NCBI GenBank assembly: GCA_029261055.1 | Contig: JAJDCA010000068.1 | Coordinates: 69,275 to 133,274 of the forward strand | Source of the DNA: Candidatus Omnitrophota bacterium | GTDB lineage: Bacteria; Omnitrophota; Gorgyraeia; Zapsychrales; Zapsychraceae | Direction: 5' to 3' | Length of the DNA stretch: 64,000 nucleotides | Shown here: in pieces, positions 39,561 through 63,646 of the stretch | Layout of the letters: each line of letters starts with the position of its first letter | How positions within the stretch are numbered: position 1 is the first letter of the stretch | Notes under the pieces: generated by a model | The model's input: only the letters and a program-made list of their open reading frames with translations | Databases searched by the model: none | What the model was told of the DNA's origin: nothing | Position numbers and translations under genes: made by a program

Positions 39561-41227
39561 TCTACTCCTATTCCTGTTTCTTTAGTTTTAAGATTCAACC
39601 CACTATTCGCATCCTGAGGCAATAACGCCACATATTGACGCAACCAGTTCCTTCCGATTCGGGCATGGGCAACCACACACTCTTTGCCATAATGCTTACC
39701 GCAATCTGAAGCTACTGATTTAAACTGCATTTGTAATCTCTCATCCCTCTCACTGTATTGCCTAGTTCCAGCAAATCTTTCCAACATCTCATCCACTAAT
39801 TCCTTAATATCGTCTTCATTATTATTTACGATTTCAACATCTTCTTTGTCATAACTAGCCGTAACATCAGCCATTGCTAAAGGAGGGACAAGCAATTCTG
39901 AAAATTTCACTGGGCGGCCTTCACGGCTCCTTATTAAAAGTTTTGGTATAAATAAATCTTCACTTGTCAGAAAATAAATTCCGCAGGTCGGTAATGAATT
40001 GGTCATAACAATGGGTTTCCCAAACGTTATCGCAAAAAGATGTAAACCTGAAGCTGTCGTCACAAAAAATCGACATTGAGCACATAAAAAGACATCCATC
40101 CAGTCACTTTTAGCTTCACTATGAGCATAATCAATAACACGGGGCATCTTAGGCATTGGTTTCATGGTAGAATCCCCCATGCGAAACACCCAACCCCCGG
40201 CATCCGTCACGGCTTTCATGGCTGATTGATATGTATCAATATCGGCATCACGGAAATCATTTCCCCGTGAATCTTTATCCTTCCATCCGCTTTCCCTCAC
40301 ATGAAAACAGACAAACCAGTCATTTTCGCTCAAACCAAAGGCTTTAAGACTCTGCAATCCTCGTTGACGATGCATATCCGTAATTTTTAATACGGGCTCT
40401 CGTTTCTCTCTAATCCATTGCTCACATACAGACCCAAGCGCCAAAAAACTTTTTCGTACTTCCCCATGTAAAAACATATAATGATTTAGTGGAATTTCAA
40501 ACCGCTTTTCTAAAGGCTTAAGCAATTGAATCATATCTGAATCAGTTATAACGGTTATATAAGGGCGCCAACAATTTAGATAACTGAGATTGTTAACAGA
40601 TTCTTTGTGGTCAACAAGCAAAATTATTTTTTTTTCGGGACGCAACCCAAGCTTTCCTGCCTTAATATAAATATCCAAATGTTCATAATTACCTATACTA
40701 CCCATGCTTAAATAGCTCGGAAGAAATTCAATTTCCAAGTCATCATACTGATTCAATTCAGCCATTTTCTGCCGAAATTCTGCATCTTTTTGGCACATTT
40801 CATGCATTGCTTCCAACTTTCCCTGATTATAATAAAGGGTCCTTAATTTTTGATTCGCGTTCAACCAATCCAGATCATCATTTGGTGAGGGCTTCTGATC
40901 TACAATTTTCTTAAAATACCCAATCGTTTGTTCTTCCAAATCTTTAATAGCTCTGTCGCTAGGATTTGCTTGTGACTTAATTTTCTTTAACTTTCTTAGG
41001 TTTCTTTCTCCCATAAAGCAGTAAGCATTGGGCCAATCCATATCAAGCAATACCGTCAACGGCGCACTAATAGACATAAAAAGCAGCCAAAACAGTTTTA
41101 CAATTTTTCGAAACACTACAAGCATGCCGCCTTTACGTATATGCCCCAATTGTCGCTCACCCCAAACAATCATTTTTCTCAATATAGTCATCATTTTAAA
41201 CTGTTTGCTCCCGAAGAGTCCCACCAA
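39557..41227 (-). CDS. Membrane-anchored putative glycosyltransferase, paralog A of a tandem pair (TIGR04372-like domain; hedged)
   Basis: N-terminal TM helix. C-terminal ~250 aa (CFHVRESGW...FRDADIDTY...VFRMGD...VIDY...FLCAQCRFFV...LFIPK...SREGR) clearly homologous to the adjacent gene 41196-42386. 556 aa with an extra N-terminal domain. Confidence 0.4.
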   Translation of the reverse strand: MVGLFGSKQFKMMTILRKMIVWGERQLGHIRKGGMLVVFRKIVKLFWLLFMSISAPLTVLLDMDWPNAYCFMGERNLRKLKKIKSQANPSDRAIKDLEEQTIGYFKKIVDQKPSPNDDLDWLNANQKLRTLYYNQGKLEAMHEMCQKDAEFRQKMAELNQYDDLEIEFLPSYLSMGSIGNYEHLDIYIKAGKLGLRPEKKIILLVDHKESVNNLSYLNCWRPYITVITDSDMIQLLKPLEKRFEIPLNHYMFLHGEVRKSFLALGSVCEQWIREKREPVLKITDMHRQRGLQSLKAFGLSENDWFVCFHVRESGWKDKDSRGNDFRDADIDTYQSAMKAVTDAGGWVFRMGDSTMKPMPKMPRVIDYAHSEAKSDWMDVFLCAQCRFFVTTASGLHLFAITFGKPIVMTNSLPTCGIYFLTSEDLFIPKLLIRSREGRPVKFSELLVPPLAMADVTASYDKEDVEIVNNNEDDIKELVDEMLERFAGTRQYSERDERLQMQFKSVASDCGKHYGKECVVAHARIGRNWLRQYVALLPQDANSGLNLKTKETGIGVE

Positions 41228-42386
41228 GCAATTCTTTATTCTGCCTTAAATACTGAGCTCCGATTAACCCAAAGAATTTTTTTCTATTATTACCCTCAAC
41301 AATATTTCTGAATCTTTGCTGCAACTCCTTATCCTCTTGTGTTTCAACCCATGTTCCGTTCAGACGTTTTTCCATTTCCAACGAAACGTCCAGAATCTCT
41401 TGTGGAGTATTGTTGACCATTTCTATCCCAGCTTTCTGAAATTGTTCGGTCGTGCCGTATTGGGCAATCTCAGTATTAAGCATTTCATCAAGGGTCAGAA
41501 AACGCTTTTCCCTTGATAAAAAAAGTTTTTTGGGAATGAACAATTGACCGCTTGTAACCAAATGAATAGGGCTAAAGGGCACAAAATCGATCCAGACAAC
41601 CGGCCGCCTAAATATCATAGGCACTTCCGCCAATCCGTCCGACCCGGCAATAAAAAAATGGCAGTGCGCACTTAAATACACATCAAGAAAATCTGTTCCT
41701 CCGATAGCCCCATAATCAATGACCTTTGGATGAACCATCTTAAATTTTTTCTCAACATATCGTCCCATTCTGACGGCAAAATAACCTTTACTTACTAGTT
41801 TTTCAACAGCAGGAACATAATTATCGATATCCGCATTACGATAATCATGATAATCCCAATTTATATGAGCTAGGTGTTTCTTTAAATAACCTGCCTCACG
41901 TGTGTGAAAACAAATAAATGGTTTGTCAAGCGGCACTCCTAATTCTTTGAGTTGTTCTTGGCCGAATTTCAATTCGTTCTCAGTAAAACTTAAATTGGGC
42001 AATGTATTAACTGTTGAATCATCATATACCCTGGTCATGTAGGGAACGACGTGTTTTTCCCATCCAGGAATGCCTCTATTGACTTTATCAACCCAAAAAG
42101 CAAAAGGATATATCGGAATCGATCTTTCTATCATTTTCTTAACCTGGGTGTTAGAAATTTTGTCCTTCCAAAAACAACAAAAGTCTATAGTTCGCGGAAC
42201 ATTCAGGCCCGCCTTACGGCGACAAACAAATGCATCAAAATGCGGCAGTACGCATCCGATCTTGAAGATAGGAAATCTACAAATCCGCACAGCCACCAAC
42301 GGCGACAGAATCCTCATTAACAAAACCAACGGCATTGCCAACAACATTAATATAAATTTTTTAATTTTCGAATCAGACGTCGTCAT
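41196..42386 (-). CDS. Membrane-anchored putative glycosyltransferase, paralog B of the tandem pair
   Basis: CFHTREAGY...YRNADIDNY...AVRMGR...VIDY...YLSAHCHFFI...LFIPK...SREKR aligns motif-for-motif with paralog A. N-terminal TM helix. 396 aa. Confidence 0.4.
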   Translation of the reverse strand: MTTSDSKIKKFILMLLAMPLVLLMRILSPLVAVRICRFPIFKIGCVLPHFDAFVCRRKAGLNVPRTIDFCCFWKDKISNTQVKKMIERSIPIYPFAFWVDKVNRGIPGWEKHVVPYMTRVYDDSTVNTLPNLSFTENELKFGQEQLKELGVPLDKPFICFHTREAGYLKKHLAHINWDYHDYRNADIDNYVPAVEKLVSKGYFAVRMGRYVEKKFKMVHPKVIDYGAIGGTDFLDVYLSAHCHFFIAGSDGLAEVPMIFRRPVVWIDFVPFSPIHLVTSGQLFIPKKLFLSREKRFLTLDEMLNTEIAQYGTTEQFQKAGIEMVNNTPQEILDVSLEMEKRLNGTWVETQEDKELQQRFRNIVEGNNRKKFFGLIGAQYLRQNKELLGGTLREQTV

Positions 42387-43338
42387 AACTTTTTCCCATC
42401 GCTATTTCAAAAGGCGCCCCCTCGCTCTCTACGGAATGAATAATCCTTTTGACTAATTGTTCTGGCTGTAAATTGAACGCTTCCAATAATAAATCTTGGT
42501 CTCCATAGGTTTGGACAAAAGCATCCGGTAATCCCCACCGATAAATAGGAGGAAGTTCAGCAGGCACACTGTGATCAATCAAGAGTTCCAAGCATGCACT
42601 TCCTAATCCGCCAATTAATGTATGCTCCTCAACGATAAATACCTTCCTGGCCTTCTTGACATAGTCAACAATGTTTTTATCCAAGGGCTTAACAGTATGA
42701 ACATGCAATACACCGCACTCTATTCCCTTATCAGAAAGCTGTTGAGCAGCCGTTAACGCTCTATGCGTCATAGCACCATTGGCAATGATCAATATCGCTC
42801 CTTCACGCATCAAAATCGACTTACCAATTTCAAAACCTGCCTTATCATCACTGACAATCGGTCGACCGTACTTAGCGCATCGAATATAAATCGTACCCGG
42901 CCACGTCAGCGTGTGAGGCATTAAACGGGTCATTTCATCAGCATCGCAGGGAACAACAACAGTCATATCCGGAATCGCCCTCATGATAGCCACATCTTCG
43001 ATTGCCGTGTGCGTGGGCCCAAGATGCGCCGTTGTTAAACCACCGCCCATCCCTACTACCCGAATAGGCCGTTTTTGCAAACAAGCATCCAGGGCGATCT
43101 GTTCATAGGTCTTTCTGGTATTAAACGTCGCGTGATTCAATATATAAGGAATATAACCCTCGGCCGCCAAACCCGTCGCCATTCCGGCAATGTTAGCTTC
43201 CGATATCGGTTCTACAAAATATCTACTTTGTATTTCCTCACTGAGTTCTACGCCAGGTCCATGGTCGCAACCGATCAAAACCACATTAGGGTTTGTCTTG
43301 GCCATCTCACTGATCATATTCATGCACGCTCTAAACAT
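42373..43338 (-). CDS. Transketolase, C-terminal section (pyrimidine-binding + C-terminal domains), split-type
   Basis: GYIPYILNHATF...VVGMGGGLTTAHLGPTHTAIEDVAIMRAIPDMTVVVPCDADE is the transketolase central/C-terminal signature. Its start codon overlaps the stop of the N-terminal subunit gene. Confidence 0.9.
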   Translation of the reverse strand: MFRACMNMISEMAKTNPNVVLIGCDHGPGVELSEEIQSRYFVEPISEANIAGMATGLAAEGYIPYILNHATFNTRKTYEQIALDACLQKRPIRVVGMGGGLTTAHLGPTHTAIEDVAIMRAIPDMTVVVPCDADEMTRLMPHTLTWPGTIYIRCAKYGRPIVSDDKAGFEIGKSILMREGAILIIANGAMTHRALTAAQQLSDKGIECGVLHVHTVKPLDKNIVDYVKKARKVFIVEEHTLIGGLGSACLELLIDHSVPAELPPIYRWGLPDAFVQTYGDQDLLLEAFNLQPEQLVKRIIHSVESEGAPFEIAMGKSYDDV

Positions 43339-44180
43339 TAATAATCCTCCAAGGCCACATACATTTGATTAATCAAATCGTCGCTGATTTTATTTTTCCA
43401 ATGCCATGCAGAATCATTTTCAGCAAAAGAAATTCCTTTCCCCTTTACTGTATGACAAATAATAGCCATAGGATTTTTCTTCGGTTTTTCTTCAAAGACG
43501 CTTTCAAGTTCCTGGATATCATGCCCGTTAACTTCCTTCACCTCGAAGCCAAAACTACTCCATTTATCAGCTAAAGAACCAAAACATGAAATATCTTTGG
43601 TGTAGCCGGCCAATTGAACTTTATTATCATCAATTATAGTGATGAGATTAGTTAAATTGTGTTTAGAAGCACTTAAAGCTGCCTCCCAAATAGAGCCTTC
43701 ACCCATTTCACCATCACCCAATAACACAAAAACCCTATTATTTCTTTTCCTCATTAACGCGCCCTTAGCCATACCAACCCCAATGGACAGACCATGCCCC
43801 AATGCTCCCGTGGTTGCTTCTATGCCCGGCACCAATTCTTCACAACATCCGCCAAGTCTCGAACCTTCCTTGCTATAGGTACTCAACTCATCTTTCGAAA
43901 TAAATCCCTTATCTGCTAAAATCGCATAAAGCCCCAAACAGCCATGTCCTTTGCTTAAAATAAATCGGTCTCTCTCCGGCCAAGTAAGATCCCCGATTTT
44001 ATAATTCAATGTATTGTCGTATAATACCCTTACGATTTCAATCAATGATAACGCAGAACCAATATGGCCTTTTCTAGCTCCCTGTAAACCTCCAATAACA
44101 AGCCGCCTTAATTCTTTTGACCTACCATCCAGCTTTGAACTCTTTGCTTTTTCAGCTAATTCTGCTATTGCATTGGACAT
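43338..44180 (-). CDS. Transketolase, N-terminal section (thiamine-diphosphate-binding), split-type
   Basis: GHIGSALSLIEIVRVLY...LLGDGEMGEGSIWEAALSASKHNLTNLITIIDDNKVQ (TPP-binding GDG...N motif). 280 aa. Confidence 0.9.
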   Translation of the reverse strand: MSNAIAELAEKAKSSKLDGRSKELRRLVIGGLQGARKGHIGSALSLIEIVRVLYDNTLNYKIGDLTWPERDRFILSKGHGCLGLYAILADKGFISKDELSTYSKEGSRLGGCCEELVPGIEATTGALGHGLSIGVGMAKGALMRKRNNRVFVLLGDGEMGEGSIWEAALSASKHNLTNLITIIDDNKVQLAGYTKDISCFGSLADKWSSFGFEVKEVNGHDIQELESVFEEKPKKNPMAIICHTVKGKGISFAENDSAWHWKNKISDDLINQMYVALEDY

Positions 44181-45189
44181 AAGGTAATTCCTTGTAAGAT
44201 TCGTAGACGGATTTTGTTAAATTCCGCACACGTTCCAGCTGTTTACTTCGTTCCGTATCACCATTTGATTTAAGCAGTTGATATCCCGGTTGAAATGGAT
44301 TCAACATAATCATGCACCATTTTAATCCAAAGAGTGGATATAATGATTTGAGCCTACTAAAAAACTTCTCATCTTTACCAAAAATATTTATAAATCCATC
44401 AAACAACGCCTGTTTCTTTTCATCATTCAGATTCATCCCCGGATGTTGAAGGGTGTCAGCAACCAACTTAACCGGATCATCCCATCCGAAGAACTCAAAA
44501 TCGAGAAAATAATAATTATCATCTTTGCATAAAATATTGTGAAAACCAAAATCCACGATGCTTAAAGTTCGCTGTTCAAATGCAATATCTTCATCAAAAT
44601 TTAATCCGCAGCGCTTGTATTCTTCCTGAGCCCATGTAGAAACTTCATTAAATATGGGCATAAAATTTTGATCGATAAATTTATCTAATTGCGGATATTT
44701 ACTTCTCGATGATTCAATGCGATCTAATCGAGTATTAATTTGGTTAACAATGTCATTTCCAGTTAAGGTAGCATCCGTTGCCCGCCTTACTTCACAATCT
44801 TTAGTGCGCAGTGCAATGCCATGAACCTTTTGAATAAACTTCATAACATCATACATTTCTTTGACACCGTACTCATGTACCTTCTCCCCGTCAATCCATT
44901 CCATTAAAACACAATTCCTCCCTTGATCTTTAGCGATGATTTTCGGAGTTGATGTTATTTCGTTCCTAGAAAACAATTCGAGCGCCGTTGTCTCTGCTTC
45001 CCATCTCACCTTTTTTCCATTTTTGTCCGACCTGAAAAATTTAAGAGCATAGGTTTTACCGGCATTCTCTATACGGTAAATGCGGCTATTTCTTCCCCCT
45101 TCTATCCCAACAATATTGATATCCGTAGCTCCGCACATCTCACTTGCTATAATTTTTACTTGTTCAATATTATTTTCTGCACTGCACAT
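44152..45189 (-). CDS. Aminoglycoside-phosphotransferase/choline-kinase-like (APH fold) small-molecule kinase
   Basis: Brenner/HGD-like region IVDFGFHNILCKDDNYYFLDFEFFGWDDP (catalytic and Mg-binding DFE...D motifs of the APH/ChoK fold). 345 aa. Paralog of 59307-60422. Confidence 0.7.
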   Translation of the reverse strand: MCSAENNIEQVKIIASEMCGATDINIVGIEGGRNSRIYRIENAGKTYALKFFRSDKNGKKVRWEAETTALELFSRNEITSTPKIIAKDQGRNCVLMEWIDGEKVHEYGVKEMYDVMKFIQKVHGIALRTKDCEVRRATDATLTGNDIVNQINTRLDRIESSRSKYPQLDKFIDQNFMPIFNEVSTWAQEEYKRCGLNFDEDIAFEQRTLSIVDFGFHNILCKDDNYYFLDFEFFGWDDPVKLVADTLQHPGMNLNDEKKQALFDGFINIFGKDEKFFSRLKSLYPLFGLKWCMIMLNPFQPGYQLLKSNGDTERSKQLERVRNLTKSVYESYKELPYVQCNSRIS

Positions 45190-45204: not shown

Positions 45205-45984
45205 TTAAATTCTTCCGCCACTGATCGGCATGATCGAGCCAGAGGCAAATGAGGCTTTGTCCGAAGCTAAAAATACCACAAAAGGCGATATTTCTTCGGC
45301 ATCGGCAAACCGACCTATCGGATAATATTGATTAATAAATTCGTTAACAAGCTGCTGATTTTGATCTTTCAACTTATCCCAATATTTTCCTTGAGACAAA
45401 ACAACGCCAGGCATAACACCGCTTACCACAACATTATCCTTCGCCATCTCGCGCCCCAACCCTTTCACATAAGCATTCAAATAGGCTTTTGCCGCCGCGT
45501 AAGGAAGGGCGCCACCAAAAGGCTCACTTAATGGCTCGCCCAGTTCGGCAGATATTGATGATATATGAACGACTCGTCCCCAACTTCGAGCTTGCATCTC
45601 CGGAATCAAAATCGCATTCATCTCAATAGCGACACCTACATTAAATCGCCAAACTGAGTTCCAATCCTCAACCTTTCCTAATGGATTCTTTTGGCCCAGG
45701 GCGCCGCCAACATTATGTACGACAATATCAATATTCTTATGTTTGGAAATCAACTCCTGCGCAACACGCGTCGGCTCTCCAGGTTCTCTTAAATTTGAAA
45801 CAATATAGTCATGACCTTTGGCCGTTCCGCCGATTTCATCTATCTTTTGTTTCAATCTACCTTCATCACGAGAAACAATAGTAAGCATACAATTTTCATT
45901 TGCAAAATCCTTAGCTATGGCAGCACCGATCCCCTTGCTGCCTCCCGTAATTAATACTCTTTTTCCCTTTATGCCTAAATCCAT
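45205..45984 (-). CDS. SDR family oxidoreductase
   Basis: KRVLITGGSKGIGAAIA motif; YAAAKAY (YxxxK). 259 aa. Confidence 0.85.
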   Translation of the reverse strand: MDLGIKGKRVLITGGSKGIGAAIAKDFANENCMLTIVSRDEGRLKQKIDEIGGTAKGHDYIVSNLREPGEPTRVAQELISKHKNIDIVVHNVGGALGQKNPLGKVEDWNSVWRFNVGVAIEMNAILIPEMQARSWGRVVHISSISAELGEPLSEPFGGALPYAAAKAYLNAYVKGLGREMAKDNVVVSGVMPGVVLSQGKYWDKLKDQNQQLVNEFINQYYPIGRFADAEEISPFVVFLASDKASFASGSIMPISGGRI

Positions 45985-47081: not shown

Positions 47082-47942
47082 TTATGTCAAAACAAGCCCA
47101 AAAATATTCTTTAGTTTATTAGTATTTAAGTTTTGCACTAACGGACTTGCCTTTCCTGCAACAGGTATAATTTTATCTTTCCAATCATCCTTTCCCATCT
47201 CATCGCATAAAGCGCACAGCCTATCGTAGTAATTCATTAACCTAGTCCCAACGTGATACGTACCGTAATTTGTATCATTAATAAAAATCTCAAATAAATT
47301 AAGCAGCTCCTCCAACCGTAAAAAACATCGTTCCACATTATTAAATACCGTTACTTTCTTCCCGCTTCTAAGATCAATAATTGCCTTATCTATGAAAGAG
47401 CCCCGGCCAGTTCTTGTAGAAATACTGAAATGATCTCCCAGGGAATGAACGATAGGAAGTCTCACAATATGAAATTTATCAGTTTTTTCTTTAATCATTT
47501 CTTCGCATTCATATTTAAGATGCGCATAAAGCCATAACGGATTCACACCGGTCTCTTCGTCTGGGTTCGGATCGGAGCCATCAAAAACTTTATCTGTCGA
47601 TGGAAAGATAATATGCGCGTCATCCGATAAATTATTAACAATATTTTGTGTAATCCCTATATTAGCTGCCCTTGCATTTTCAGGATTTTCTTCATTTCGC
47701 CTGGGAGATAAAAAAGCTGCGAAGTGAAATATTATAGTTGGTTTAACCTTATCGAATATCTCTTTGACTTTTTTCCCGTCTCTTAAATCTGCCTCTATAA
47801 AACCTTTACTGCTGTCACCTTCCTTTAAATGAAAAGTGACACCCGTGGAATCATAGTTTTTTAGTTTTTCAAATAAACCTCTTCCTATAAAGCCGCCCGC
47901 ACCAGTAATTAATATTCTTCCTGAATTTATTCTATTTTCCAT
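47082..47942 (-). CDS. NAD-dependent epimerase/dehydratase family protein (extended SDR)
   Basis: RILITGAGGFIGRGLFEKL; YAHLK (YxxxK). 286 aa. Confidence 0.75.
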   Translation of the reverse strand: MENRINSGRILITGAGGFIGRGLFEKLKNYDSTGVTFHLKEGDSSKGFIEADLRDGKKVKEIFDKVKPTIIFHFAAFLSPRRNEENPENARAANIGITQNIVNNLSDDAHIIFPSTDKVFDGSDPNPDEETGVNPLWLYAHLKYECEEMIKEKTDKFHIVRLPIVHSLGDHFSISTRTGRGSFIDKAIIDLRSGKKVTVFNNVERCFLRLEELLNLFEIFINDTNYGTYHVGTRLMNYYDRLCALCDEMGKDDWKDKIIPVAGKASPLVQNLNTNKLKNIFGLVLT

Positions 47943-47946: not shown

Positions 47947-48981
47947 CTAATCCATTGAAATTATAACGCGGCCCGTTTCACCGCTACGGACTGCATCCAA
48001 CGCTTCATTAATTTCGTCTAATTTAAATTCATGTGTAATCAAATCAGCGAGTTTTAATTTTCCGACATTGTATAGCTGAACATACCGTGGAATTTCAATA
48101 TGAGGGTCAGCACTGCCACCATGAGAACCGGTTAAAACTTTCTTAAAATGTAGCGGCAAAGAATAAATGGAAATATCATCACCTTTACGCGGTACGCCAA
48201 CAAGGATTGTCTTTCCGTCAGGACGGGTCATCTGATAAGCCATTTCGATGACCCGTGCATTTCCCGTTGTGTCGATTACTACATCTGCACCCTTATCTCC
48301 GACAATTTTATAAATTTCCTCTTTCCAGGAATCAGAATCCTTTGAATTAAAACAATGCGTTGCCCCAAACTTCTTTGCCGCCTCTAATTTTAAATCAAAA
48401 ACATCTACGCCGATAATCGGATGCGCAGAAACCAATTCTGCAGCTTGAACTAAATTTAAGCCAACCCCTCCGATTCCAATAATTACCACCGATTGTCCAA
48501 TTTTGACATGTGCATCATTATTGATCACACCCATGGCTGTTGTGACCGAACAACCAAATAAAGGGGCCAGCTTCATATCAAAATCATCAGGGATAGGTGT
48601 TAACCGATTTTCTGAAATAATGGCGTGATCGCTAAATGTCGTTACCCAACCGGCATTGACGGTACGACCATCCCATTGATATTTTGGTGGTTCCGATTGT
48701 AAGCCGTCACTCGGCCGCCAGTGCATAACGACATGGTCTCCCTTTTTCACTGTTTTGACTCCAGGGCCAACATTCAAAACAATTCCTGATCCTTCATGCC
48801 CTAACAAATGCGGCAAGAATTTGTCCGGACCTTTGGTTCCCATGATCTCGTTTATCTGCGCCCCACAAATACCGCTGTAAGAAATTTTCACTAAAACCTG
48901 TCCAAATTCCAAAGTTTCTGGCATTTCCAATTCAGCCAGAACTAATGGTTTATTCAACTCAACTAAAACAGCTGCTTTCAT
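47947..48981 (-). CDS. Zinc-dependent medium-chain alcohol/polyol dehydrogenase (MDR family), paralog of 46006-47049
   Basis: SGICGAQINE...LGHEGSGIV; GIGGVGL Rossmann. 344 aa. Confidence 0.85.
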   Translation of the reverse strand: MKAAVLVELNKPLVLAELEMPETLEFGQVLVKISYSGICGAQINEIMGTKGPDKFLPHLLGHEGSGIVLNVGPGVKTVKKGDHVVMHWRPSDGLQSEPPKYQWDGRTVNAGWVTTFSDHAIISENRLTPIPDDFDMKLAPLFGCSVTTAMGVINNDAHVKIGQSVVIIGIGGVGLNLVQAAELVSAHPIIGVDVFDLKLEAAKKFGATHCFNSKDSDSWKEEIYKIVGDKGADVVIDTTGNARVIEMAYQMTRPDGKTILVGVPRKGDDISIYSLPLHFKKVLTGSHGGSADPHIEIPRYVQLYNVGKLKLADLITHEFKLDEINEALDAVRSGETGRVIISMD

Positions 48982-50207: not shown

Positions 50208-50232
50208 GGTTTTCTCCTCTTTAGAATTAGCC

Positions 50233-56857: not shown

Positions 56858-57520
56858 TTATTCAAAATATATAAATTCATAATCACCGGTATATCCGAAA
56901 TGCTCATAGAGCCAAATCCATTCATCTTTATCAAAGAACGATTCACACGTCAAAGCCCAACACTGCAAATTAAACTGTTCTAATTCGTTTCTATAACTCT
57001 CCAGCATAATATATTTATTTTTGCCGACACGTTCGACTTCTTTGACCGCTGTTTCTAACTCAAAAATGCGTAGGTTATGAAAACAGCCCAATGTGATGAC
57101 CAAATCGAAATAATTATCCTCAAAAGGATATGGGTCTTGGGCCTTTTGAATGCGCAAACAATCACGGACTTCTTGGGGTGCATCGGCAACTCCATGTTTG
57201 GAAATGTCAAATCCCACAATTTCCGCCTTCGGGAGCAGTTTTTTAAATTCACTCATTAAATGCGCCTTACCGCATCCCACATCAAGAATTTTTGCATCCT
57301 CTTTAAGGTCATAAATTTCGATAAATTTCTGGGCAACTACTTTCCAGCGTCCATCATATTTATATCCACCGTATCCATAGCGCCGGTCACCATCCCAATA
57401 ATCAGATTCATATTCTTTAGCTTTGAGCATGCAATGGACTTTTTCATCCACCATGCGGTCAATATAGGCTCTCTTTGTTTGCGTGTGTAAAGGTGTGACG
57501 ATTTCGAGTAACTTACTCAT
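56858..57520 (-). CDS. Class I SAM-dependent methyltransferase
   Basis: ILDVGCGKAHLMSEF (motif I), VGFDIS (post I), DLVITLGCFHNL (motif II/III). 220 aa. Confidence 0.7.
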   Translation of the reverse strand: MSKLLEIVTPLHTQTKRAYIDRMVDEKVHCMLKAKEYESDYWDGDRRYGYGGYKYDGRWKVVAQKFIEIYDLKEDAKILDVGCGKAHLMSEFKKLLPKAEIVGFDISKHGVADAPQEVRDCLRIQKAQDPYPFEDNYFDLVITLGCFHNLRIFELETAVKEVERVGKNKYIMLESYRNELEQFNLQCWALTCESFFDKDEWIWLYEHFGYTGDYEFIYFE

Positions 57521-57542: not shown

Positions 57543-58487
57543 TTATGCCCCTAGTTTAATCTGTGCCCCTCGCGCCTCTTTGATGGACGCAACTAAATTC
57601 TCTTCGGTGATCCCATAATGCTTCAATTGATCATTTTGAGAACCGTATATATCGGGAAAAACATCCGGAATGCCGATCCTCTTAAAATTTTTAGGTGCTT
57701 CAAAATTTGCTTCCGCAACGATCTCAGCAACTGCACTGCCTAAACCCCCAATCGTGGAATGCTCCTCAATAACTACGATTATGGGTATTCGTTCACAATA
57801 GTTCAATATAGTTTCCGTATCTAGCGGTTTGATCGTATGATTATGCAGGATTGTCGTTTCAATCCCTTCCGCACTAAGCAACTCGGCTGCCTTTTGTGCA
57901 ATGCCAAGCGTGATCCCTGTTGTAATGACAACGGCATCTTCACCCTCTCTCGCTACGATCGCCTTGCCTATTTCAAAAGAATTGTCATCAGAAGTCACAA
58001 TAGGGTCATATCCTTTAGCCATTCGGATATAAATCGGTCCAGGATAATCTACAGTTTGGGGCATTAACCGACGCATCTCATCGGCATCGGCTACCGCAAT
58101 AACAGTCATATTCGGAATAGAGCGCATAATTGCGATATCGTCAATTGCCAAATGCGTCGGTCCCAGCGGGGCATACACTAAACCACCTCCATTGGCAATC
58201 AAACGAATATTGGCCTTATGCAGACAGGCGTCGAGAACAACTTGCTCAAAGCAGCGCCGTGAAAGAAATGTTGCGATCGTATTCACATAAACAATCTTGC
58301 CTTCTATCGCTAAACCGCATCCTATCCCGACCAAATTTGCCTCACTGACACCTTCCATAAAAAATCGTTCCGGGATATTCTCTTTAAACTCTTTTAAAGT
58401 TTCAAAACTAAGATCTGACCCAATAAAAAAAATGCGTTCATCTTTTTGCGCAAGTTCATACACTGCGTTAAGGCATGTTTTACGCAT
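57543..58487 (-). CDS. Transketolase, C-terminal section (second split-transketolase pair)
   Basis: RLIANGGGLVYAPLGPTHLAIDDIAIMRSIPNMTVIAVADADE; paralog of 42373-43338. Its start overlaps the stop of the N-terminal subunit gene by 1 nt. Confidence 0.9.
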   Translation of the reverse strand: MRKTCLNAVYELAQKDERIFFIGSDLSFETLKEFKENIPERFFMEGVSEANLVGIGCGLAIEGKIVYVNTIATFLSRRCFEQVVLDACLHKANIRLIANGGGLVYAPLGPTHLAIDDIAIMRSIPNMTVIAVADADEMRRLMPQTVDYPGPIYIRMAKGYDPIVTSDDNSFEIGKAIVAREGEDAVVITTGITLGIAQKAAELLSAEGIETTILHNHTIKPLDTETILNYCERIPIIVVIEEHSTIGGLGSAVAEIVAEANFEAPKNFKRIGIPDVFPDIYGSQNDQLKHYGITEENLVASIKEARGAQIKLGA

Positions 58488-59323
58488 TAAGCAATCTCCA
58501 ATTCTTTCAAAAGTCCTGAAATATCTTCATCTGTTAGATTGCTGACGTGATGCCATTGTAAATTGTTTTCAGCATAACTAATCCCTTTTCCCTTCACTGT
58601 ATGACAAATAATCGCATTAGGCTTATCAGATTCAAAGGGAAGTTCTAATAATGTTGATTTTAATGCTTTAACATCATGACCATCGACTTCTCGCGTTGCA
58701 AATCCAAACGCCTTCCATTTATCGGCAAAAGGCTCAAGATCTAAAACTTCGTGAGTAGAAGCATACGACTGATGCTTATTGTAATCAATCATAACCGTAA
58801 GGTTCTTTAACTTATGTTTTCCGGCGCATAATGCAGCTTCCCAAACTGAGCCTTCATTACATTCTCCATCACCGACAATAACAATCGTTCGATAATCAGC
58901 TTTTTCATAACGAGCATTTAAAGCCATTCCAATACCCAAAGATAAACCGTGCCCTAAACTCCCCGTCGAAACTTCAATACCGGCAACCTTATGTTCCGGA
59001 TGACCGCCTAAAATGCCGTCAACTTTACAAAACTTCCATAATTCTGATTCGGGTATAAATCCCTTTTCCGCAAGCATCACATAAAGAGCAATACAGCCAT
59101 GCCCTTTACTTAAAATACATCGATCACGATGAAACCATTCAGGATTTTTTGAATCAAACGTAAGAATATCGTCGTAAAGAACGCGTAATATTTCAATAAC
59201 CGAAAGTGACGCCCCAATATGCCCTCTTCCTCCGGCCTCCAATGTTTTAACAATCATTTTCCTTAAATCTTTTGATCTTTGATCTAATCCCACGTTAATC
59301 TCTCCATTACAATAATGTGTCAT
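58487..59323 (-). CDS. Transketolase, N-terminal TPP-binding section (second pair)
   Basis: GHIGASLSVIEILRVLY...VGDGECNEGSVWEAALCAGKHKLKNLTVMIDYNKHQ; paralog of 43338-44180. Confidence 0.9.
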   Translation of the reverse strand: MTHYCNGEINVGLDQRSKDLRKMIVKTLEAGGRGHIGASLSVIEILRVLYDDILTFDSKNPEWFHRDRCILSKGHGCIALYVMLAEKGFIPESELWKFCKVDGILGGHPEHKVAGIEVSTGSLGHGLSLGIGMALNARYEKADYRTIVIVGDGECNEGSVWEAALCAGKHKLKNLTVMIDYNKHQSYASTHEVLDLEPFADKWKAFGFATREVDGHDVKALKSTLLELPFESDKPNAIICHTVKGKGISYAENNLQWHHVSNLTDEDISGLLKELEIA

Positions 59324-60422
59324 AAGGAAACTTGCTGTATGTATCTTTCATCGTCACAAGCATATTTTTGGCTTTTAAAAGCTGCTTTTTAAGAATGTTG
59401 TTTTTGCTTAAAGTTTCTATTTGCGCAAAATGACGCCGTTGAAAATCCCCTGGTATAAATTCGTTCAAAAAAATAAGACACCATTTCAGGCCAAAGAAAG
59501 GATAGGTAACTTTGATCCTATCCTTTAATCGTTCACATTCCTTAAATAATTTAAGTCCGCTTGTTACAAACTGTTGCTTAAGATTTCGATCAAGCATCAT
59601 CGCTGGATGAAGTAAAAAATCTGAAATAGTTTTAGCTGGATCATCCCATCCAAAATGTTCAAAATCCAAGAAGACAATACGCCCGCTCTTATCTCTGAGA
59701 GCATTATGAAAACCAAAATCCGATGGGCTCAATATCTTCTCTCTCTCACTTATACTTTCATCAAATGATATCCTGGAATCTGAAAGCCTCTTCTTTGCCC
59801 ACTGTATTAATATTTCCCAAAATGGAATGAACTCGCAGTCTAAATAATTCCTAAGGACTTCGTATTCTTCTCCAGGCTCCTTAACTTCCTTAAGCCGGTT
59901 TACCCTCGCTTGAATATTATCATTAATTTCCTGGACTGAAAAAAAAGCTTCCGAAGCTACACGCGGAAAATCTGCATCGACACCCCTTAACCTTTTCAAG
60001 TCTGCCAGAAACTCAAGTGCGCAGACGATATCTTGACTTTTAATTTCTTCAGGAGAAATTTTTTTTCCTTCAATAAATGTATAAATAGCACAATTTCCAT
60101 CTTTATCCATAGTGATCGGCTGTGGAATAGATCTGAGGCCGTTATTCCAAAGAAAACTCAAGCTTGAAAACTCAACCGTAAGCCGGTCTCTTGTATTAGC
60201 GGCATCACAGTAATAAAATTTTAAGACATATTTTACATTATCAACTGATTTAATTTGATAAACACGACTATTAAGCCCTCCTCCAATTCTTTTGGAATCA
60301 GTTATTGGCATTGAAAGCAGCCGACAAGCGATACTTTTGACATCAGCATCCTCGAGGCTTTTTTTATTTTGCAAAGAAATAGCCATAAATATCTTTCCAT
60401 TCCCTGAAGGCTTTGACATCAT
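59307..60422 (-). CDS. APH/choline-kinase-like small-molecule kinase (paralog of 44152-45189)
   Basis: LSPSDFGFHNALRDKSGRIVFLDFEHFGWDDP catalytic region aligns with the first kinase; 371 aa. Confidence 0.7.
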   Translation of the reverse strand: MMSKPSGNGKIFMAISLQNKKSLEDADVKSIACRLLSMPITDSKRIGGGLNSRVYQIKSVDNVKYVLKFYYCDAANTRDRLTVEFSSLSFLWNNGLRSIPQPITMDKDGNCAIYTFIEGKKISPEEIKSQDIVCALEFLADLKRLRGVDADFPRVASEAFFSVQEINDNIQARVNRLKEVKEPGEEYEVLRNYLDCEFIPFWEILIQWAKKRLSDSRISFDESISEREKILSPSDFGFHNALRDKSGRIVFLDFEHFGWDDPAKTISDFLLHPAMMLDRNLKQQFVTSGLKLFKECERLKDRIKVTYPFFGLKWCLIFLNEFIPGDFQRRHFAQIETLSKNNILKKQLLKAKNMLVTMKDTYSKFPYDTLL

Positions 60423-60978
60423 TTAGCACAGATTTTTTTTTGGCAAAAAGAATCCTCTCCACATGAACTGGAAAGGAATCCTCTAAAAATGTCTCTTCCA
60501 AATCATCAATAAAATGAGTGCATCCCAACTGTTTAATCCTCTCAATCTTTTCACGTCTTGTCGATTCAAAAAAAACCCTGTCTGGAGTCAGCCCCAAACC
60601 GTTTTCATCAAAGAATCGATTATTTTTCATCCAATGCATCGCTGTAACTCTAAGATTAATTTCGTTTTCATCCATCGAGGCGAATTGGGTTTTATGGCTA
60701 ACGATGGACACACAAATTTTAGCGTTACGGCAAGCATCAAAAAATGGTTTTATACCCTCAAAAAGCATTGCATCCTTCATACCCTGTCCGTATATAAAAG
60801 CCTGCAATTTTTGCCATTCAAGCTCACCATCGGGTAATTCTCTAATCTTATTGCGAATATTTTGTTTGTCTTTTTCAGTCTCCGGGGTAATGAAACCAGA
60901 TTGAAGCGCTCTGTCATAAAGAGTATTTTCATAATTGACAATAGTATTATCAAAATCTATTCCGATAATACGACTCAT
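60364..60978 (-). CDS. HAD-superfamily hydrolase (sugar-phosphate phosphatase candidate)
   Basis: IIGIDFDNTIV (DxDxT motif I); 204 aa. Overlaps the upstream kinase gene by 59 nt in another frame. Confidence 0.6.
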   Translation of the reverse strand: MSRIIGIDFDNTIVNYENTLYDRALQSGFITPETEKDKQNIRNKIRELPDGELEWQKLQAFIYGQGMKDAMLFEGIKPFFDACRNAKICVSIVSHKTQFASMDENEINLRVTAMHWMKNNRFFDENGLGLTPDRVFFESTRREKIERIKQLGCTHFIDDLEETFLEDSFPVHVERILFAKKKSVLNDVKAFREWKDIYGYFFAK

Positions 60979-61015: not shown

Positions 61016-62041
61016 TTAAGATATGTTGCATTGGGTTTCCGTCTTTAATGTTTTTATATTAAAGTATTTAGGATTATTCATAGAATCCTCAAACTTATTA
61101 TTCCGAAACGCCTTAATCAGATCACGTACAGCATCTTCCAACGTGTGCGTCGGAACAAAATTTAATTCTTTTTTAATTTTCTCCGAGGATATTCGATAAG
61201 AACGAATATCATCAGACGGCGTTGTCTCAATCGTAGGCTCGTCACGATCAGGGATTTCTTGTTTAACCACATCGTGTACGATTTGGGCAATGTCAGCAAT
61301 GCTCCGGTTTTGATAGCCGGCATTGTAAATTTTTCCGGCAATTTTTTCTTTGGGTAACTCAAGAAGCATAACGTAAAGATCTGTAATATCTTCAATATGA
61401 ATATTTGGACGCTCTTGTTTACCGCCGAAAACCTTTATATGATTATTGTTATACGCATGGTTTGTTAAAATATTGACCGACAGATCAAATCTTTGCCGAG
61501 GCGAATACCCACAGACAGTTGCCGGACGAATCGTTACTGTCGTAAATTCATCCGATTGATATTTGGTAAGGATAGGCTCACACAAACCTTTATATTTATT
61601 ATAATCTGTAATCGGCAGAAGCGGATGATCTTCCGTAACTTGCTCAGCTTCACTAATACCGTACACACTGCAGGTTGAAGCATAAATAAATTTTTTTATA
61701 CCACTTTCCTTGCTGATTTGAACAAGCGGTTCAAAGGCATCATAATTGACTTTCTTGCTAAGCTCGGGATCAAGTTCAAACGTTGGATCATTAGATATGC
61801 AAGCAAGATGAATGACAGCATCACAACCGTGCAAACTTGATTTTAACAGGTCATGATCACAAATATCCCCCTTAATCTCTTCTAAATCGGTTTTATTTTC
61901 TATTCCATCAAAAACATCTTCCCCATAAGTGTATAAATCTAATACCTTCACATAATATCCTTGGTTCAATAACTTAGGCACTAAAATGGCACCCACATAT
62001 CCAGCTCCACCGGTAACTAAAACTGTTTGTTTTCTATTCAT
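61016..62041 (-). CDS. NAD-dependent epimerase/dehydratase (UDP-glucose-4-epimerase/HldD-like extended SDR)
   Basis: VLVTGGAGYVGAIL Rossmann motif, STCSVYG, YNKYK (YxxxK). 341 aa. Confidence 0.8.
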   Translation of the reverse strand: MNRKQTVLVTGGAGYVGAILVPKLLNQGYYVKVLDLYTYGEDVFDGIENKTDLEEIKGDICDHDLLKSSLHGCDAVIHLACISNDPTFELDPELSKKVNYDAFEPLVQISKESGIKKFIYASTCSVYGISEAEQVTEDHPLLPITDYNKYKGLCEPILTKYQSDEFTTVTIRPATVCGYSPRQRFDLSVNILTNHAYNNNHIKVFGGKQERPNIHIEDITDLYVMLLELPKEKIAGKIYNAGYQNRSIADIAQIVHDVVKQEIPDRDEPTIETTPSDDIRSYRISSEKIKKELNFVPTHTLEDAVRDLIKAFRNNKFEDSMNNPKYFNIKTLKTETQCNIS

Positions 62042-62059: not shown

Positions 62060-63646
62060 CTACTTTAATAACCTTGTAATAAATTTAATTAAATCTACTG
62101 AATTGACAGGTTCTCTATTGCATACGATTTGAACAGCTAAAGATCCCACCGTATTGCCGATAAAGGACACCAACTCTTGAGGCATTCCCACCGCAAAGCA
62201 CGGAGCGACAAACGCAAAAAAAGCGTCGCCTGCACCGATCGCATCGACAACATTACTCGAAAATGCAGGGGTCTCATGAAAACCATATTCTTTCGAAAAA
62301 CAAACTGAACCATGCGAGCCTCTTGTAGCAATAATATGCTCACACCCTATTTTCTGATATATATCTTTGGATAACGTTCGCACATCTCCAAATTTATCAT
62401 GGGTCGCAAAACGTAATTCCATTTCATCAATACACACACAATGCGCATGTGGATATTTTGTGACAAGATTAAACCCTGCATTAGACCCATTTGTTTGTGC
62501 GTTAATAGCTAAATACTTTGATTTCTTGGACAATAAATTAATAATTTTTTTGGTCAATAGTCCATGACCAAAATCTGAAACAATTACGGCATCATAATTC
62601 TTAATTGTTTTTTTTAAATGTTGGATAATTTTTGATTCTTCCTGTCGGCTAATATCTTTATCGTCCATATAACAAATCTCAAACAATTTCTGACTTGAAT
62701 ATTTATTAACAAACCTTCTTTTAATGACAGTACTGGAATCGGAACGATAAAAGAAAATAGGATTGATATTATTATTTAGCCGGCTTTGAATAAAGTCCTG
62801 ATGCGCCCGTTTTTCTCCTAACACCGTCAGCAAATCAACATTCTCGCACACACTGGCGACATTGTTAGCCGTTGCCAAAACACCGCCGGCAAACATTTCC
62901 TTAGAATCATACTTATTAACAACGACGTCGGCCTTAGATGATTTCCCCATGGGTAAACAATAATGATATTCATCAACAATGGCGTCACCAATCACCAATA
63001 CTTTTAATTTTTTTAACGACTCTAAAGATTTCTTAATATTATCAATGCTATACCTTTTTCCAATAGCCTTTAAATATTTCACAGTCCTTGGCGGATACAC
63101 ATCGAGATGATTATTAATGATACTCGAGGAGCTAAACGTAATATCATCCGTAAAAACTAATCTTCCGCCTACAGACTTGATGGCATCTTCTTCATCATAA
63201 ATTTTTCCGGTAACATCTTCTTCTTTGGCCTTATATTCAACGCCCTTGGCATAAACATTCGGCCTTATTTTTTTTATAAATTCAATAGCTGTTGGGGCAT
63301 CCACTACAGACACAAAATCAATGGCCGCCAAAGAAGCTAAAGTCTCCGCGCGTAATTTTTCATTAAAAACAGGACGACCAGGGCCTCTTTTGACAAATTT
63401 ATCTTTTGTCGTAGAAACAACTAATACATCGCCTTCTTTTTTGGCCATATTAAAATGCCGTATATGACCAAGATGCACAATATCAAACACTCCATGGCAA
63501 AGGACAACTTCTTTTCCCTTTTTTTTGCAATTACTAATAATCTTGGCTAAGGAGTCAACTGATTTAATTTTTTTTGAAGTTTTGCTATCCATGTTCATTA
63601 TTTTTTTAATTACAAATGGTGAGTAAACGAAGACCTTCAGCTTCAC
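62060..63646 (-). CDS. Bifunctional sugar-phosphate nucleotidyltransferase (N-terminal, cytidylyl/adenylyltransferase-like HxGH fold) + pfkB-family sugar kinase (C-terminal); HldE/RfaE-like in reversed domain order
   Basis: N-term VVLCHGVFDIVHLGHIRHF (HxGH nucleotidyltransferase motif). C-term pfkB kinase with VVDAIGAGDAF signature. 528 aa (true start may be the internal MNMDSK). Confidence 0.7.
   Translation of the reverse strand: MKLKVFVYSPFVIKKIMNMDSKTSKKIKSVDSLAKIISNCKKKGKEVVLCHGVFDIVHLGHIRHFNMAKKEGDVLVVSTTKDKFVKRGPGRPVFNEKLRAETLASLAAIDFVSVVDAPTAIEFIKKIRPNVYAKGVEYKAKEEDVTGKIYDEEDAIKSVGGRLVFTDDITFSSSSIINNHLDVYPPRTVKYLKAIGKRYSIDNIKKSLESLKKLKVLVIGDAIVDEYHYCLPMGKSSKADVVVNKYDSKEMFAGGVLATANNVASVCENVDLLTVLGEKRAHQDFIQSRLNNNINPIFFYRSDSSTVIKRRFVNKYSSQKLFEICYMDDKDISRQEESKIIQHLKKTIKNYDAVIVSDFGHGLLTKKIINLLSKKSKYLAINAQTNGSNAGFNLVTKYPHAHCVCIDEMELRFATHDKFGDVRTLSKDIYQKIGCEHIIATRGSHGSVCFSKEYGFHETPAFSSNVVDAIGAGDAFFAFVAPCFAVGMPQELVSFIGNTVGSLAVQIVCNREPVNSVDLIKFITRLLK

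Follow-up and report, generated by a model that had tools for sequence, protein, structure and literature searches.

The stretch of DNA analysed here, 64,000 nucleotides of a Candidatus Omnitrophota contig (JAJDCA010000068.1) and referred to below as the window, carries two cassettes in which a small-molecule kinase of the APH fold is followed by a transketolase divided between two genes. Comparison of the encoded proteins with their relatives indicates that these transketolases and their homologues constitute a distinct subfamily with a conserved, rebuilt acceptor pocket. The cassettes appear to be parts of a larger module, in which a HAD phosphatase, the kinase and the split transketolase form the core, set inside a GmhA/HldE-like nucleotide-heptose pathway with short-chain dehydrogenases/reductases (SDRs), zinc-dependent alcohol dehydrogenases (Zn-ADHs) and methyltransferases. 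This module of glycan synthesis is distinct, widespread and biochemically unexplored, and it is a variant on known superfamilies. According to the reading favoured here, to which a probability of roughly 0.45 is given, the kinase would install a phosphate handle, the transketolase would extend the resulting sugar phosphate by two carbons, and the HAD phosphatase would remove the handle, yielding unusual surface sugars.

Both cassettes lie on the minus strand, in the order kinase, transketolase N subunit (TKN) and transketolase C subunit (TKC). TKN carries the thiamine diphosphate (ThDP)/PP domain and TKC the Pyr and C-terminal domains. Copy 1 consists of the kinase APH1 (44152..45189, 345 residues; PF01636, 43.6 bits against a cutoff of 23.2), TKN1 (43338..44180; PF00456, E 4e-43) and TKC1 (42373..43338; PF02779 and PF02780). 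Copy 2 consists of APH2 (59307..60422, 371 residues; PF01636, 36.3 bits against the same cutoff), TKN2 (58487..59323; PF00456, E 5e-45) and TKC2 (57543..58487; PF02779 and PF02780). All six proteins exceed the Pfam gathering scores, and the open reading frames (ORFs) coincide exactly with the two cassettes proposed by the initial annotation, with the expected Pfam domains. The paralogy of the copies claimed there is equally clear, with 32% identity between the kinases (E 5e-57), 50% between the N subunits (E 4e-92) and 45% between the C subunits (E 2e-89). The transketolase chain is split between separate, adjacent genes, whose overlap of stop and start was also described correctly: the TKN/TKC junction reads TAATG in both copies, with one base in common. 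Each kinase gene also runs into the start of its TKN gene, by 29 nt in copy 1 and by 17 nt in copy 2. The setting is a glycan cluster, as had been proposed. All 56 window ORFs of at least 150 residues lie on one strand, at a GC content of 38%, and those scanned against Pfam/NCBIfam are mostly sugar-modifying enzymes, glycosyltransferases and transporters, with several ORFs matching no family.

The best solved match of all four transketolase subunits is the split transketolase of Carboxydothermus hydrogenoformans (6YAK/6YAJ), with E values from 1.6e-43 to 1.8e-67. The N subunits match the N chain of 6YAK (TKN1, E 3.7e-56; TKN2, E 1.8e-67), and the C subunits match 6YAJ (TKC1, E 1.6e-43; TKC2, E 1.3e-60). 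In Pfam, the Transketolase family is the primary assignment and the match to E1_dh is only secondary. The canonical transketolase equivalogs of NCBIfam give at best 176–253 bits against cutoffs of at least 488, which half-length subunits could not reach in any case.

Alignments to human transketolase served to map the active-site positions, which were then checked in 74 TKN and 76 TKC homologues of related loci aligned with MAFFT. Human numbering is used below, and the human/yeast correspondences are His37/30, His77/69, His110/103, His258/263, Arg318/359, Ser345/386, His416/469, Asp424/477, Gln428/His481 and Arg474/528. The GDG...N motif for ThDP and metal, the activating Glu and the equivalents of His37, His77 and His258 are found in both window copies and in 73–76 of the 74–76 homologues. 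TKN2 retains all equivalents of His37, His77, His110, His258, Asp155 and Asn185. In TKN1 the ThDP and metal ligands are likewise present, and the equivalent of His110 is a cysteine (motif LGGCCEE, against GGHPEH in TKN2). This cysteine takes the place of the histidine that in canonical enzymes recognises the C1 hydroxyl of the donor, and the two kinds of enzyme are called here Cys-type and His-type. Because all ThDP and metal ligands and most catalytic residues are kept, neither pair is a pseudo-enzyme, a possibility that the initial annotation had raised.

The acceptor side of the active site is different. In canonical transketolase, yeast His103 binds the donor C1 hydroxyl and Asp477 reads the D-configured C2 hydroxyl of the acceptor, while Ser386 and His469 help to hold the acceptor phosphate, which is bound by Arg359 and Arg528. 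The equivalent of human Ser345 is Gly in 64 of the 76 TKC sequences (this single column adjoins an indel and is less certain), that of His416 is Gly in 69 and Ala in 7, and that of Asp424 is Leu in 74. Arginine is kept at the Arg318 position in 74 of the 76, and the Arg474 position is occupied by Lys in 68. TKC1 has Gly, Gly and Leu at the first three positions and retains the activating Glu; TKC2 has Glu, Gly and Leu, with Lys for Arg474 and its own Arg2 aligned to Arg318. The window enzymes thus lack the acceptor site expected for EC 2.2.1.1, with the first phosphate-binding arginine kept and the second replaced by lysine. Since Asp, Ser and His are lost while Arg and Lys remain, the pocket would be larger and less polar, with two cationic residues left for an anionic group.

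These replacements bear on the simplest alternative, namely that the enzymes are ordinary transketolases, either housekeeping or extra copies that raise the supply of sedoheptulose 7-phosphate for the linked heptose pathway. Sedoheptulose 7-phosphate is the substrate of GmhA, GmhA/HldE-like genes stand in the cluster, and the cofactor residues are all intact. Nevertheless, such a role is highly improbable. In nearly all module members, other residues stand at the three positions that are invariant in canonical enzymes for binding acceptors of the ribose 5-phosphate/erythrose 4-phosphate type. The histidine for the donor C1 hydroxyl is missing from copy 1 as well, the module is plasmid-borne in Crocosphaera and Solidesulfovibrio, and a mere supply of sedoheptulose 7-phosphate would give no purpose to the obligate linkage with a kinase and a phosphatase. 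In addition, plasmid pDCAR1 of Solidesulfovibrio carbinolicus DSM 3852 carries a third split pair in the same cluster (L169, 4965–6733), located after a FabG-like SDR; in this pair the His and Asp of the acceptor site are canonical, and the Ser is not clearly kept. Its presence beside a His-type module implies that glycan clusters can recruit more than one transketolase subfamily. The earlier suggestion of dedicated glycan-pathway enzymes rather than housekeeping ones therefore agrees with the non-canonical acceptor signature and with the conservation of the module in many phyla and on plasmids.

The kinases are assigned by sequence to the APH superfamily (PF01636), outside every characterised subfamily compared (aminoglycoside, choline, MTR, NahK and homoserine kinases). 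Their catalytic set, which comprises the ATP-binding Lys (K50), D213, N218 and D230, is invariant in the family alignment. The AlphaFold2 model of APH1 (pLDDT 89) has a generic bilobal APH/choline-kinase fold, and Foldseek relates it to APH, choline, homoserine and N-acetylhexosamine kinases at TM scores of 0.5–0.6 and 10–16% identity. Neither kinase passes any NCBIfam model, and the best PDB profile match (E 5.7e-5) extends across about 100 residues. The family is large: at 50% identity, a search of 1.84 billion representatives gave 2,952 clusters with E ≤ 1e-30. A profile search of species-representative genomes found more than 582 loci, of which 80 were fetched (these and other fetched loci are designated here by L numbers), and their neighbourhoods were established by tblastn with all window proteins and by de novo clustering of the locus ORFs. 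Linkage frequencies refer to the 52 "complete" loci with at least 6.5 kb on each side of the kinase, and the sampling of loci carries the bias of the search patterns by which they were fetched.

The most faithful partner of the kinase is the HAD phosphatase, which adjoins it in 52 of the 52 complete loci. The two are fused in at least 11 database proteins as well as in Chlorobium (L045) and in a metagenome-assembled genome (MAG) of Woesearchaeota (L080). In the window, the HAD-fold protein of 204 residues lies at 60364..60978 on the minus strand. Its DxDxT motif reads DFDNT, a long cap insertion is present, and a weak match to the HAD-IB model TIGR01489 (E 6e-4) was obtained; no match was found in Pfam or, by sequence, in the PDB. 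The three-gene unit of the initial annotation was therefore drawn too small: it omits this phosphatase, and copy 2 also includes an SDR, an HldE-like enzyme and a methyltransferase.

Among the complete loci, TKC is present in 98% and TKN in 96%, followed by the HldE-like enzyme (88%), the methyltransferase MT220 (81%, usually adjoining TKC), SDR341 (79%), a second GalE-like SDR (67%), an RmlD-like reductase and a second methyltransferase (50% each), DegT aminotransferases, often two (33%), and ADH (about 31%). The window representatives of the HldE-like enzyme, MT220 and SDR341 are encoded on the minus strand around copy 2. SDR341 (61016..62041, PF01370) is a GalE/HldD-like extended SDR; MT220 (56858..57520, Pfam) is a class I S-adenosylmethionine (SAM) methyltransferase of 220 residues directly downstream of TKC2. 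The HldE-like protein (62060..63646) has an N-terminal nucleotidyltransferase domain (PF01467, residues 50–154) and a C-terminal PfkB kinase domain (PF00294, residues 215–506), the reverse of the order in HldE. Its best NCBIfam models are HldE domain I (136 bits against 345) and domain II (104 against 181.5). Just past the window end (L002), an SIS gene, a second SDR and a PseB-like dehydratase follow; the SIS proteins score 96 bits against GmhA, for which the cutoff is 209. In three Chlorobium/Chlorobiaceae loci (L045, L061 and L075), in which HAD and kinase are fused, the C subunit is shortened to about 167 residues and comprises the Pyr domain only. One of them (L075) has a second, more divergent TKN/TKC pair 9 kb upstream.

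The nucleotidyltransferase domain invites a further explanation, in which a ketose phosphate made by the transketolase would be reduced by a Zn-ADH, as TarJ does with ribulose 5-phosphate, and converted by the nucleotidyltransferase domain into a nucleoside diphosphate (NDP)-alditol for alditol-phosphate substituents. TarJ and TarI are the precedent for ketose-phosphate reduction and NDP-alditol formation, zinc-dependent medium-chain dehydrogenases/reductases (MDRs) stand next to both copies, and the domain is cytidylyltransferase-like (TagD superfamily). The probability of this polyol route is slight, because an ADH belongs to under a third of the complete modules, HldE is a far better match than TagD for the nucleotidyltransferase and PfkB domains (E 7e-30 against 3e-7), and GmhA-like and GmhB-like genes imply an aldose-1-phosphate intermediate.

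The GmhB-like gene is found in cyanobacterial loci (Microcoleus and plasmid pCW1 of Crocosphaera watsonii), where a near-equivalog of GmhB (164 bits against a cutoff of 178) is encoded besides the HAD phosphatase of the module. The candidate role of the latter as a GmhB analogue is thereby ruled out as a general explanation. Because these loci have a separate GmhB, the trio of phosphatase, kinase and transketolase would be a unit added to the heptose-activation pathway, not a part of that pathway.

The two cassettes of the window differ in age and company from what a local duplication would leave behind. In a simple neighbour-joining tree, the Cys substitution defines a monophyletic clade made up of the window, L003, L005, L083b, L084 and L085b; L089, a locus fetched later, is also Cys-type. 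TKN2 falls inside the His-type clade of 67 members. Each copy is nearer to orthologues in other phyla (distance 0.26–0.29) than to the other copy (0.54), and both types occur together with the same companions in L083 and L085. The motif LGGC[CS]E is present in 49 of the 120 best database matches to TKN1; a metagenome scan for Cys-type loci returned mostly His-type ones, L089 being the one new Cys-type locus. The cassettes are thus old paralogues that co-occur, and the initial annotation's duplication within this cluster is contradicted.

Each type also has its own neighbours. Upstream of the Cys-type transketolase in L003, L005, L084 and L085 stands a tailoring trio in the same order as in the window, where it consists of the FabG-like SDR259 (45205–45984), a Zn-ADH (46006–47049) and an RmlD-like reductase (47082–47942), all on the minus strand and assigned by Pfam/NCBIfam. 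In L083, a Zn-ADH lies directly upstream of the Cys-type transketolase, with an SDR259-type gene about 4 kb further upstream. The companions of the His-type are MT220 and often a second Zn-ADH, ADH344, a zinc-dependent MDR alcohol dehydrogenase encoded in the window at 47947..48981 (minus strand, PF08240/PF00107). MT220 and ADH344 are adjacent in many loci, e.g., L013, L049, L054, L082, L083 and L085. The closest synteny to the window is shown by L003, an Omnitrophota MAG, and by L085. Downstream of TKC1, two minus-strand glycosyltransferases of family TIGR04372 (NCBIfam; 227 and 221 bits, cutoff 45) are encoded, one at 41196–42386, overlapping TKC1 by 14 nt, and the second at 39557–41227. A link of the N-terminal Arg of TKC to the presence of an adjacent kinase was considered and not used, being found only in the small Cys-type clade (4 with, 3 without) and failing in the His-type. 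Because copy 1 lacks the histidine recognising the donor C1 hydroxyl, copies 1 and 2 probably make or use different C2 units or substrates. The previous claim that the duplication reflects two different sugars accordingly holds as far as different products or substrates are probable, and fails in taking the duplication itself as local.

The favoured phosphate-handle scheme, in which both copies would encode active, dedicated transketolases coupled in translation to their kinases, would operate as follows. The kinase would phosphorylate a free or tailored aldose, and the transketolase would hold the phosphate of this handle through the retained Arg/Lys pair while moving a C2 ketol unit onto the C1 aldehyde. 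The result would be a longer 2-ketose phosphate, e.g., a C9 sugar from a heptose. The rebuilt pocket (Ser to Gly, His to Gly, Asp to Leu) could take an aldose that the canonical enzyme refuses because its C2 is substituted or not of the D configuration, or because its chain is longer. The HAD phosphatase would then strip the handle, as KdsC does after Kdo-8-P and NANP after Neu5Ac-9-P, and the GmhA/HldE-like enzymes would isomerise the longer sugar and activate it with a nucleotide. SDR, ADH and methyltransferase would tailor it, and TIGR04372 glycosyltransferases, or GT41 enzymes in flagellar islands, would transfer it. The C2 unit moved by copy 2 (His-type) would be hydroxylated (glycolaldehyde), and copy 1 (Cys-type) probably uses a different donor or C2 unit, since it lacks the histidine reading the donor C1 hydroxyl, so that the cluster might make two different products or carry out two successive extensions. 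Such a scheme accounts for the HAD-kinase fusions, the retained cationic pair and the near-obligate linkage.

Several known pathways follow a similar logic. In the synthesis of Kdo (3-deoxy-D-manno-octulosonic acid; KdsA/KdsC) and of KDN-9-P (KDN, 2-keto-3-deoxynononic acid), a condensation on an omega-phosphorylated aldose is followed by a HAD phosphatase. The mammalian synthesis of Neu5Ac (N-acetylneuraminic acid) adds a kinase step (GNE kinase/NANS/NANP). In lincosamide biosynthesis (LmbR/N/P/K/O), octulose 8-phosphate from a dedicated transaldolase is processed by GmhA-, kinase-, GmhB- and nucleotidyltransferase-like enzymes. The higher-carbon ketose phosphate, later activated, that the initial annotation envisaged is plausible in view of the linked GmhA/HldE-like genes; its further proposal, that the kinase phosphorylates the transketolase product, is not favoured, the kinase more likely acting upstream of the transketolase to install the handle.

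A number of observations weigh against the phosphate-handle scheme. Homology and fold are uninformative about the kinase substrate, as there is no close characterised APH subfamily. The GmhA-like SIS isomerase is encoded in only 60% of the complete loci, and the presence of both a PfkB and an APH kinase gives one kinase beyond the simplest version of the scheme. The Cys-type transketolases of L083, L084 and L089 have no adjacent kinase or HAD, and if a Cys-type enzyme used a non-hydroxylated donor, its product would be a 1-deoxy-ketose, not isomerisable by a GmhA-like enzyme. The changes in the pocket would also fit a bulkier, NDP-linked acceptor. In L016, which is a Rhodospirillales chromosome, a pyruvate dehydrogenase (PDH)-E1 alpha/beta pair comes after HAD, kinase and SDR341, where TKN and TKC would be expected, and the Omnitrophota locus nearest to copy 1 (L003) has an E1 pair plus a Cys-type transketolase; the characterised sugar-pathway relatives of that family branch NDP-keto sugars.

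The E1 pairs and the enlarged, less polar pocket speak for the main rival, in which the C2 unit is added at the nucleotide-sugar level, as a branch or as an extension of the distal end. Oxidation of an NDP-heptose or NDP-hexose by an SDR would give a keto or aldehydo sugar, to which the transketolase would attach a hydroxyacetyl (His-type) or acetyl-like (Cys-type) unit, giving a branched sugar whose new ketone would be reduced by ADH/SDR enzymes before methylation by the methyltransferase. Genes for ketoreductase-type ADH/SDR proteins and a methyltransferase do stand beside both copies. A 2025 ThDP review (PMC12247030) gives two parallels: split transketolases proposed, without proof, to move a hydroxyacetyl group onto a keto sugar in miharamycin/amipurimycin biosynthesis, and two-subunit E1-type alphaKADH2 enzymes (e.g., KbDH), which furnish keto sugars with acetyl branches. 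According to the same review, addition to a ketone has never been demonstrated for a transketolase. Moreover, the kinase and the HAD phosphatase, with their complete linkage and their fusions, have no role in such branching, and the retained Arg/Lys pair is no less suited to a simple phosphate ester than to a nucleotide. The core SDRs are epimerase-like: SDR341 has the motifs STCSVYG and YxxxK and not the Asp-Glu dyad of dehydratases. SDR332 and SDR341 were considered as NDP-sugar 4,6-dehydratases and rejected, the motif being S-S/T-x-S-x-Y-G and the dyad occurring in 1 of 103 members. Because the core SDRs lack the dyad, no core enzyme obviously supplies a stable NDP-4-keto acceptor. Branching at the nucleotide-sugar level is therefore judged unlikely, and the NDP-4-keto sugars listed by the initial annotation among the possible acceptors are retained only within it.

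The gene order itself suggests chain shortening, as in the aminoshikimate pathway to 3-amino-5-hydroxybenzoic acid (AHBA). In this scenario, the HAD phosphatase would free a tailored sugar from its nucleotide and the kinase would phosphorylate it. After isomerisation, the sugar would serve as transketolase donor, with C1–C2 removed and a modified, shorter aldose phosphate left. The order HAD, kinase, TKN, TKC resembles that of RifM (HAD), RifN (kinase) and Orf15A/B (split transketolase) in the AHBA synthesis of rifamycin. The module is often accompanied by a GmhA-like isomerase and DegT aminotransferases, and on S. carbinolicus pDCAR1 the HAD, kinase and His-type transketolase genes are immediately preceded by PseB and PseC. 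However, shortening is very unlikely. RifN is a ROK-type kinase and not of the APH fold, the presence of linked HldE-like activation enzymes favours the longer sugar as the product, and the signature changes lie on the acceptor/C4 side, which is also compatible with synthesis. None of the AHBA gene set (aminoDAHP synthase, aminoDHQ synthase/dehydratase, AHBA synthase) was found among the conserved neighbour families of the related loci, where neighbours without a window homologue were only sampled. The probability left by the favoured scheme and the four alternatives falls to something else.

The genomic surroundings of the module point to its possible destination. The module is spread across many phyla, and O-antigen-like clusters are among its loci. 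Related FlaEY-type genes flank it in 12 loci, and TIGR04372 homologues adjoin it in other loci and in S. carbinolicus pDCAR1. In one alphaproteobacterium, a 5.18-Mb contig (L087/L088) carries a compact 12-gene module between a FlaEY-domain protein and a flagellin/FlbT/FlaF cluster, next to a 981-residue protein with TPR and GT41 glycosyltransferase parts, and its gene content marks this locus as a predicted flagellin-glycosylation island. TIGR04324 and TIGR04323 genes occur within the fetched flanks of about 29% of complete loci, and in L018 and L087/L088 they follow, in this order, directly downstream of TKC. A more specific version of the phosphate-handle scheme is that the transketolase opens a route to a nine-carbon, sialic-acid-like neutral ketose, in which heptose 7-phosphate, possibly amino- and methyl-tailored, gains C2 to give a non-2-ulose, a new class of higher-carbon sugar. 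This version is doubtful, and its further parts are doubtful together with it, namely that such sugars would be used like nonulosonic acids, on flagellin (TPR-GT41) and on O-antigen- or capsule-like polymers, and that the Cys-type would add a second, non-hydroxylated C2.

Other genes of the glycan cluster, on the minus strand like the two cassettes, widen the picture of its chemistry. A partial pseudaminic-acid-type pathway (20339–24819) contains PseI (449 bits against an equivalog cutoff of 340) beside a WbqC-family protein, a NeuD-like acetyltransferase and a PseG-like hydrolase, and it implies that the cluster also makes a classical nine-carbon nonulosonic acid. At 9963–11548, a KdsB-like CMP-ulosonic-acid synthetase (280 bits against 255) stands beside an HpcH/HpaI class II 2-keto-3-deoxy-acid aldolase, and a second, divergent CMP-sugar synthetase lies at 16799–17566; another 3-deoxy-2-ulosonic acid may thus be made by way of an aldolase. 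A carbamoyltransferase (11741–13573) adjoins this region. An AroB-related "putative sugar phosphate phospholyase (cyclizing)" is encoded at 3581–4678 (TIGR04425, 425 bits against 400), 37 kb from the module, with which it does not travel. Its neighbours (4656–5396, 5409–6380, 6355–7449 and 2459–3379) are an SDR, a 2-hydroxyacid dehydrogenase resembling phosphoglycerate dehydrogenase/hydroxypyruvate reductase, a GFO/IDH/MocA oxidoreductase and a radical SAM/SPASM protein, and within the cluster this region may form a branch for cyclitols or carbasugars. That the 2-hydroxyacid dehydrogenase could supply (phospho)hydroxypyruvate, an irreversible transketolase donor, is pure speculation.

Between the cassettes (48981–56673, minus strand), an FkbH-like protein (54958–56673), a methyltransferase (54050–54979), an SDR (53003–53722), an MBOAT protein (50233–51675) and two weak GDSL/SGNH-like proteins (48981–50207 and 51697–52977) are encoded, together with an 81-residue ORF with no Pfam match, whose size and position suggest a carrier protein. 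The region looks like a glyceryl/acyl-carrier-protein system that O-acylates the glycan. Further along the minus strand, a 730-residue fusion of RmlD-like reductase and DegT/DnrJ aminotransferase domains (29876–32068) lies beside a 727-residue protein without family match (27691–29874) and an ABC exporter (32080–33873). An NDP-hexose C-methyltransferase (37014–38330, minus strand; Methyltransf_14 with a zinc-binding N-terminal domain) implies that a C-methyl-branched sugar is also made in the cluster, independently of ThDP enzymes. A weak match to TIGR04326, the "O_ant_LIC13510" surface-carbohydrate family (17563–19398, minus strand), links the cluster, together with the TIGR04372 glycosyltransferases, to families first defined in Leptospira O-antigen regions.

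The module places a textbook enzyme of central metabolism, transketolase, in a many-phyla family tied to its own kinase and phosphatase in loci for surface glycans, on plasmids and in flagellin glycosylation. Identifying its substrates would probably bring to light one or two so far unknown sugars of bacterial surfaces and flagella, either higher-carbon or branched, and this would be the first biochemical role of a split transketolase in glycan synthesis. If the nine-carbon ketose version were true, the higher-carbon sugars would gain a new class and transketolase a new role in biosynthesis. The enzymes are also possible biocatalysts, with altered acceptor stereo-preference (Asp to Leu) and altered donor preference (His to Cys), traits now sought by mutagenesis. 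The existence of cultured carriers, S. carbinolicus DSM 3852 and C. watsonii WH 8501, makes the question directly testable.

Full-text searching of the accessible literature found no study of this module, and the only relevant paper was the ThDP review PMC12247030. Two NCBIfam families that recur as its neighbours, TIGR04323 (LIC12192 family) and TIGR04324 (2-oxoglutarate-Fe(II) oxygenase), are named "sporadic carbohydrate cluster", so the recurrent carbohydrate neighbourhood had already been noticed by curators. Neither is encoded in the 64-kb window; they are name-only computational families, for which literature searching found no function or paper.

Of the known systems, the C. hydrogenoformans enzyme shares with the window transketolases the division into an N chain (ThDP/PP) and a C chain (Pyr and C-terminal), the cofactor ligands and the activating Glu. 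In contrast, it retains Ser, His and Asp at the three acceptor positions, where the window enzymes have Gly (or Glu), Gly and Leu, with Lys for the second Arg and, in copy 1, Cys at the donor position; nor is a kinase or HAD partner implied for it. The split transketolases of miharamycin/amipurimycin and the alphaKADH2 enzymes are likewise two-subunit ThDP enzymes of sugar-tailoring clusters, in which a C2 unit is added and reduction or methylation follows; unlike the present family, with its many phyla and its surface-glycan and flagellar loci, they have keto sugars of Streptomyces secondary metabolites as their actual or proposed substrates. PMC12247030 counts only 13 split-gene transketolases of the miharamycin/amipurimycin kind, all in Streptomycetes. 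E1 alpha/beta pairs occupy the position equivalent to the transketolase in L016 and L003, and the window enzymes, being of the transketolase family, have neither the E1_dh plus E1 beta nor the acetolactate-synthase-like fold of alphaKADH2/YerE-type proteins. A kinase/phosphatase partnership is not known for the miharamycin/amipurimycin transketolases or the alphaKADH2 enzymes.

The ADP-heptose pathway (GmhA, HldE, GmhB) resembles the module in the GmhA-like SIS protein, in the PfkB and nucleotidyltransferase domains and in the GmhB linked to the module in cyanobacteria. It differs in that the HldE-like protein of the module has its domains reversed and scores below the equivalog cutoffs, and in that an APH kinase and a capped HAD phosphatase are added. 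In AHBA synthesis, likewise a sugar-derived pathway, the three enzyme classes are found together (RifM/RifN/Orf15A-B), with a ROK instead of an APH kinase; among the neighbour families sampled, aminoshikimate genes do not accompany the module, whose direction is probably synthetic. In the lincosamide octose pathway, a dedicated carbon–carbon enzyme of the pentose-phosphate type also builds a ketose phosphate for activation, this enzyme being a transaldolase (C3) whereas that of the module is a transketolase (C2). The routes through Kdo-8-P, Neu5Ac-9-P and KDN-9-P with KdsC or NANP offer the same sequence of an omega-phosphorylated aldose, condensation at C1 and removal of the handle by a HAD phosphatase, and their products, like those proposed for the module, serve surface polysaccharides and protein glycosylation. 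Their synthases, however, are of the aldolase type and use phosphoenolpyruvate (C3) to make 2-ulosonic acids, which are activated as CMP-sugars, whereas the module would give a neutral 2-ketose by means of a ThDP enzyme.

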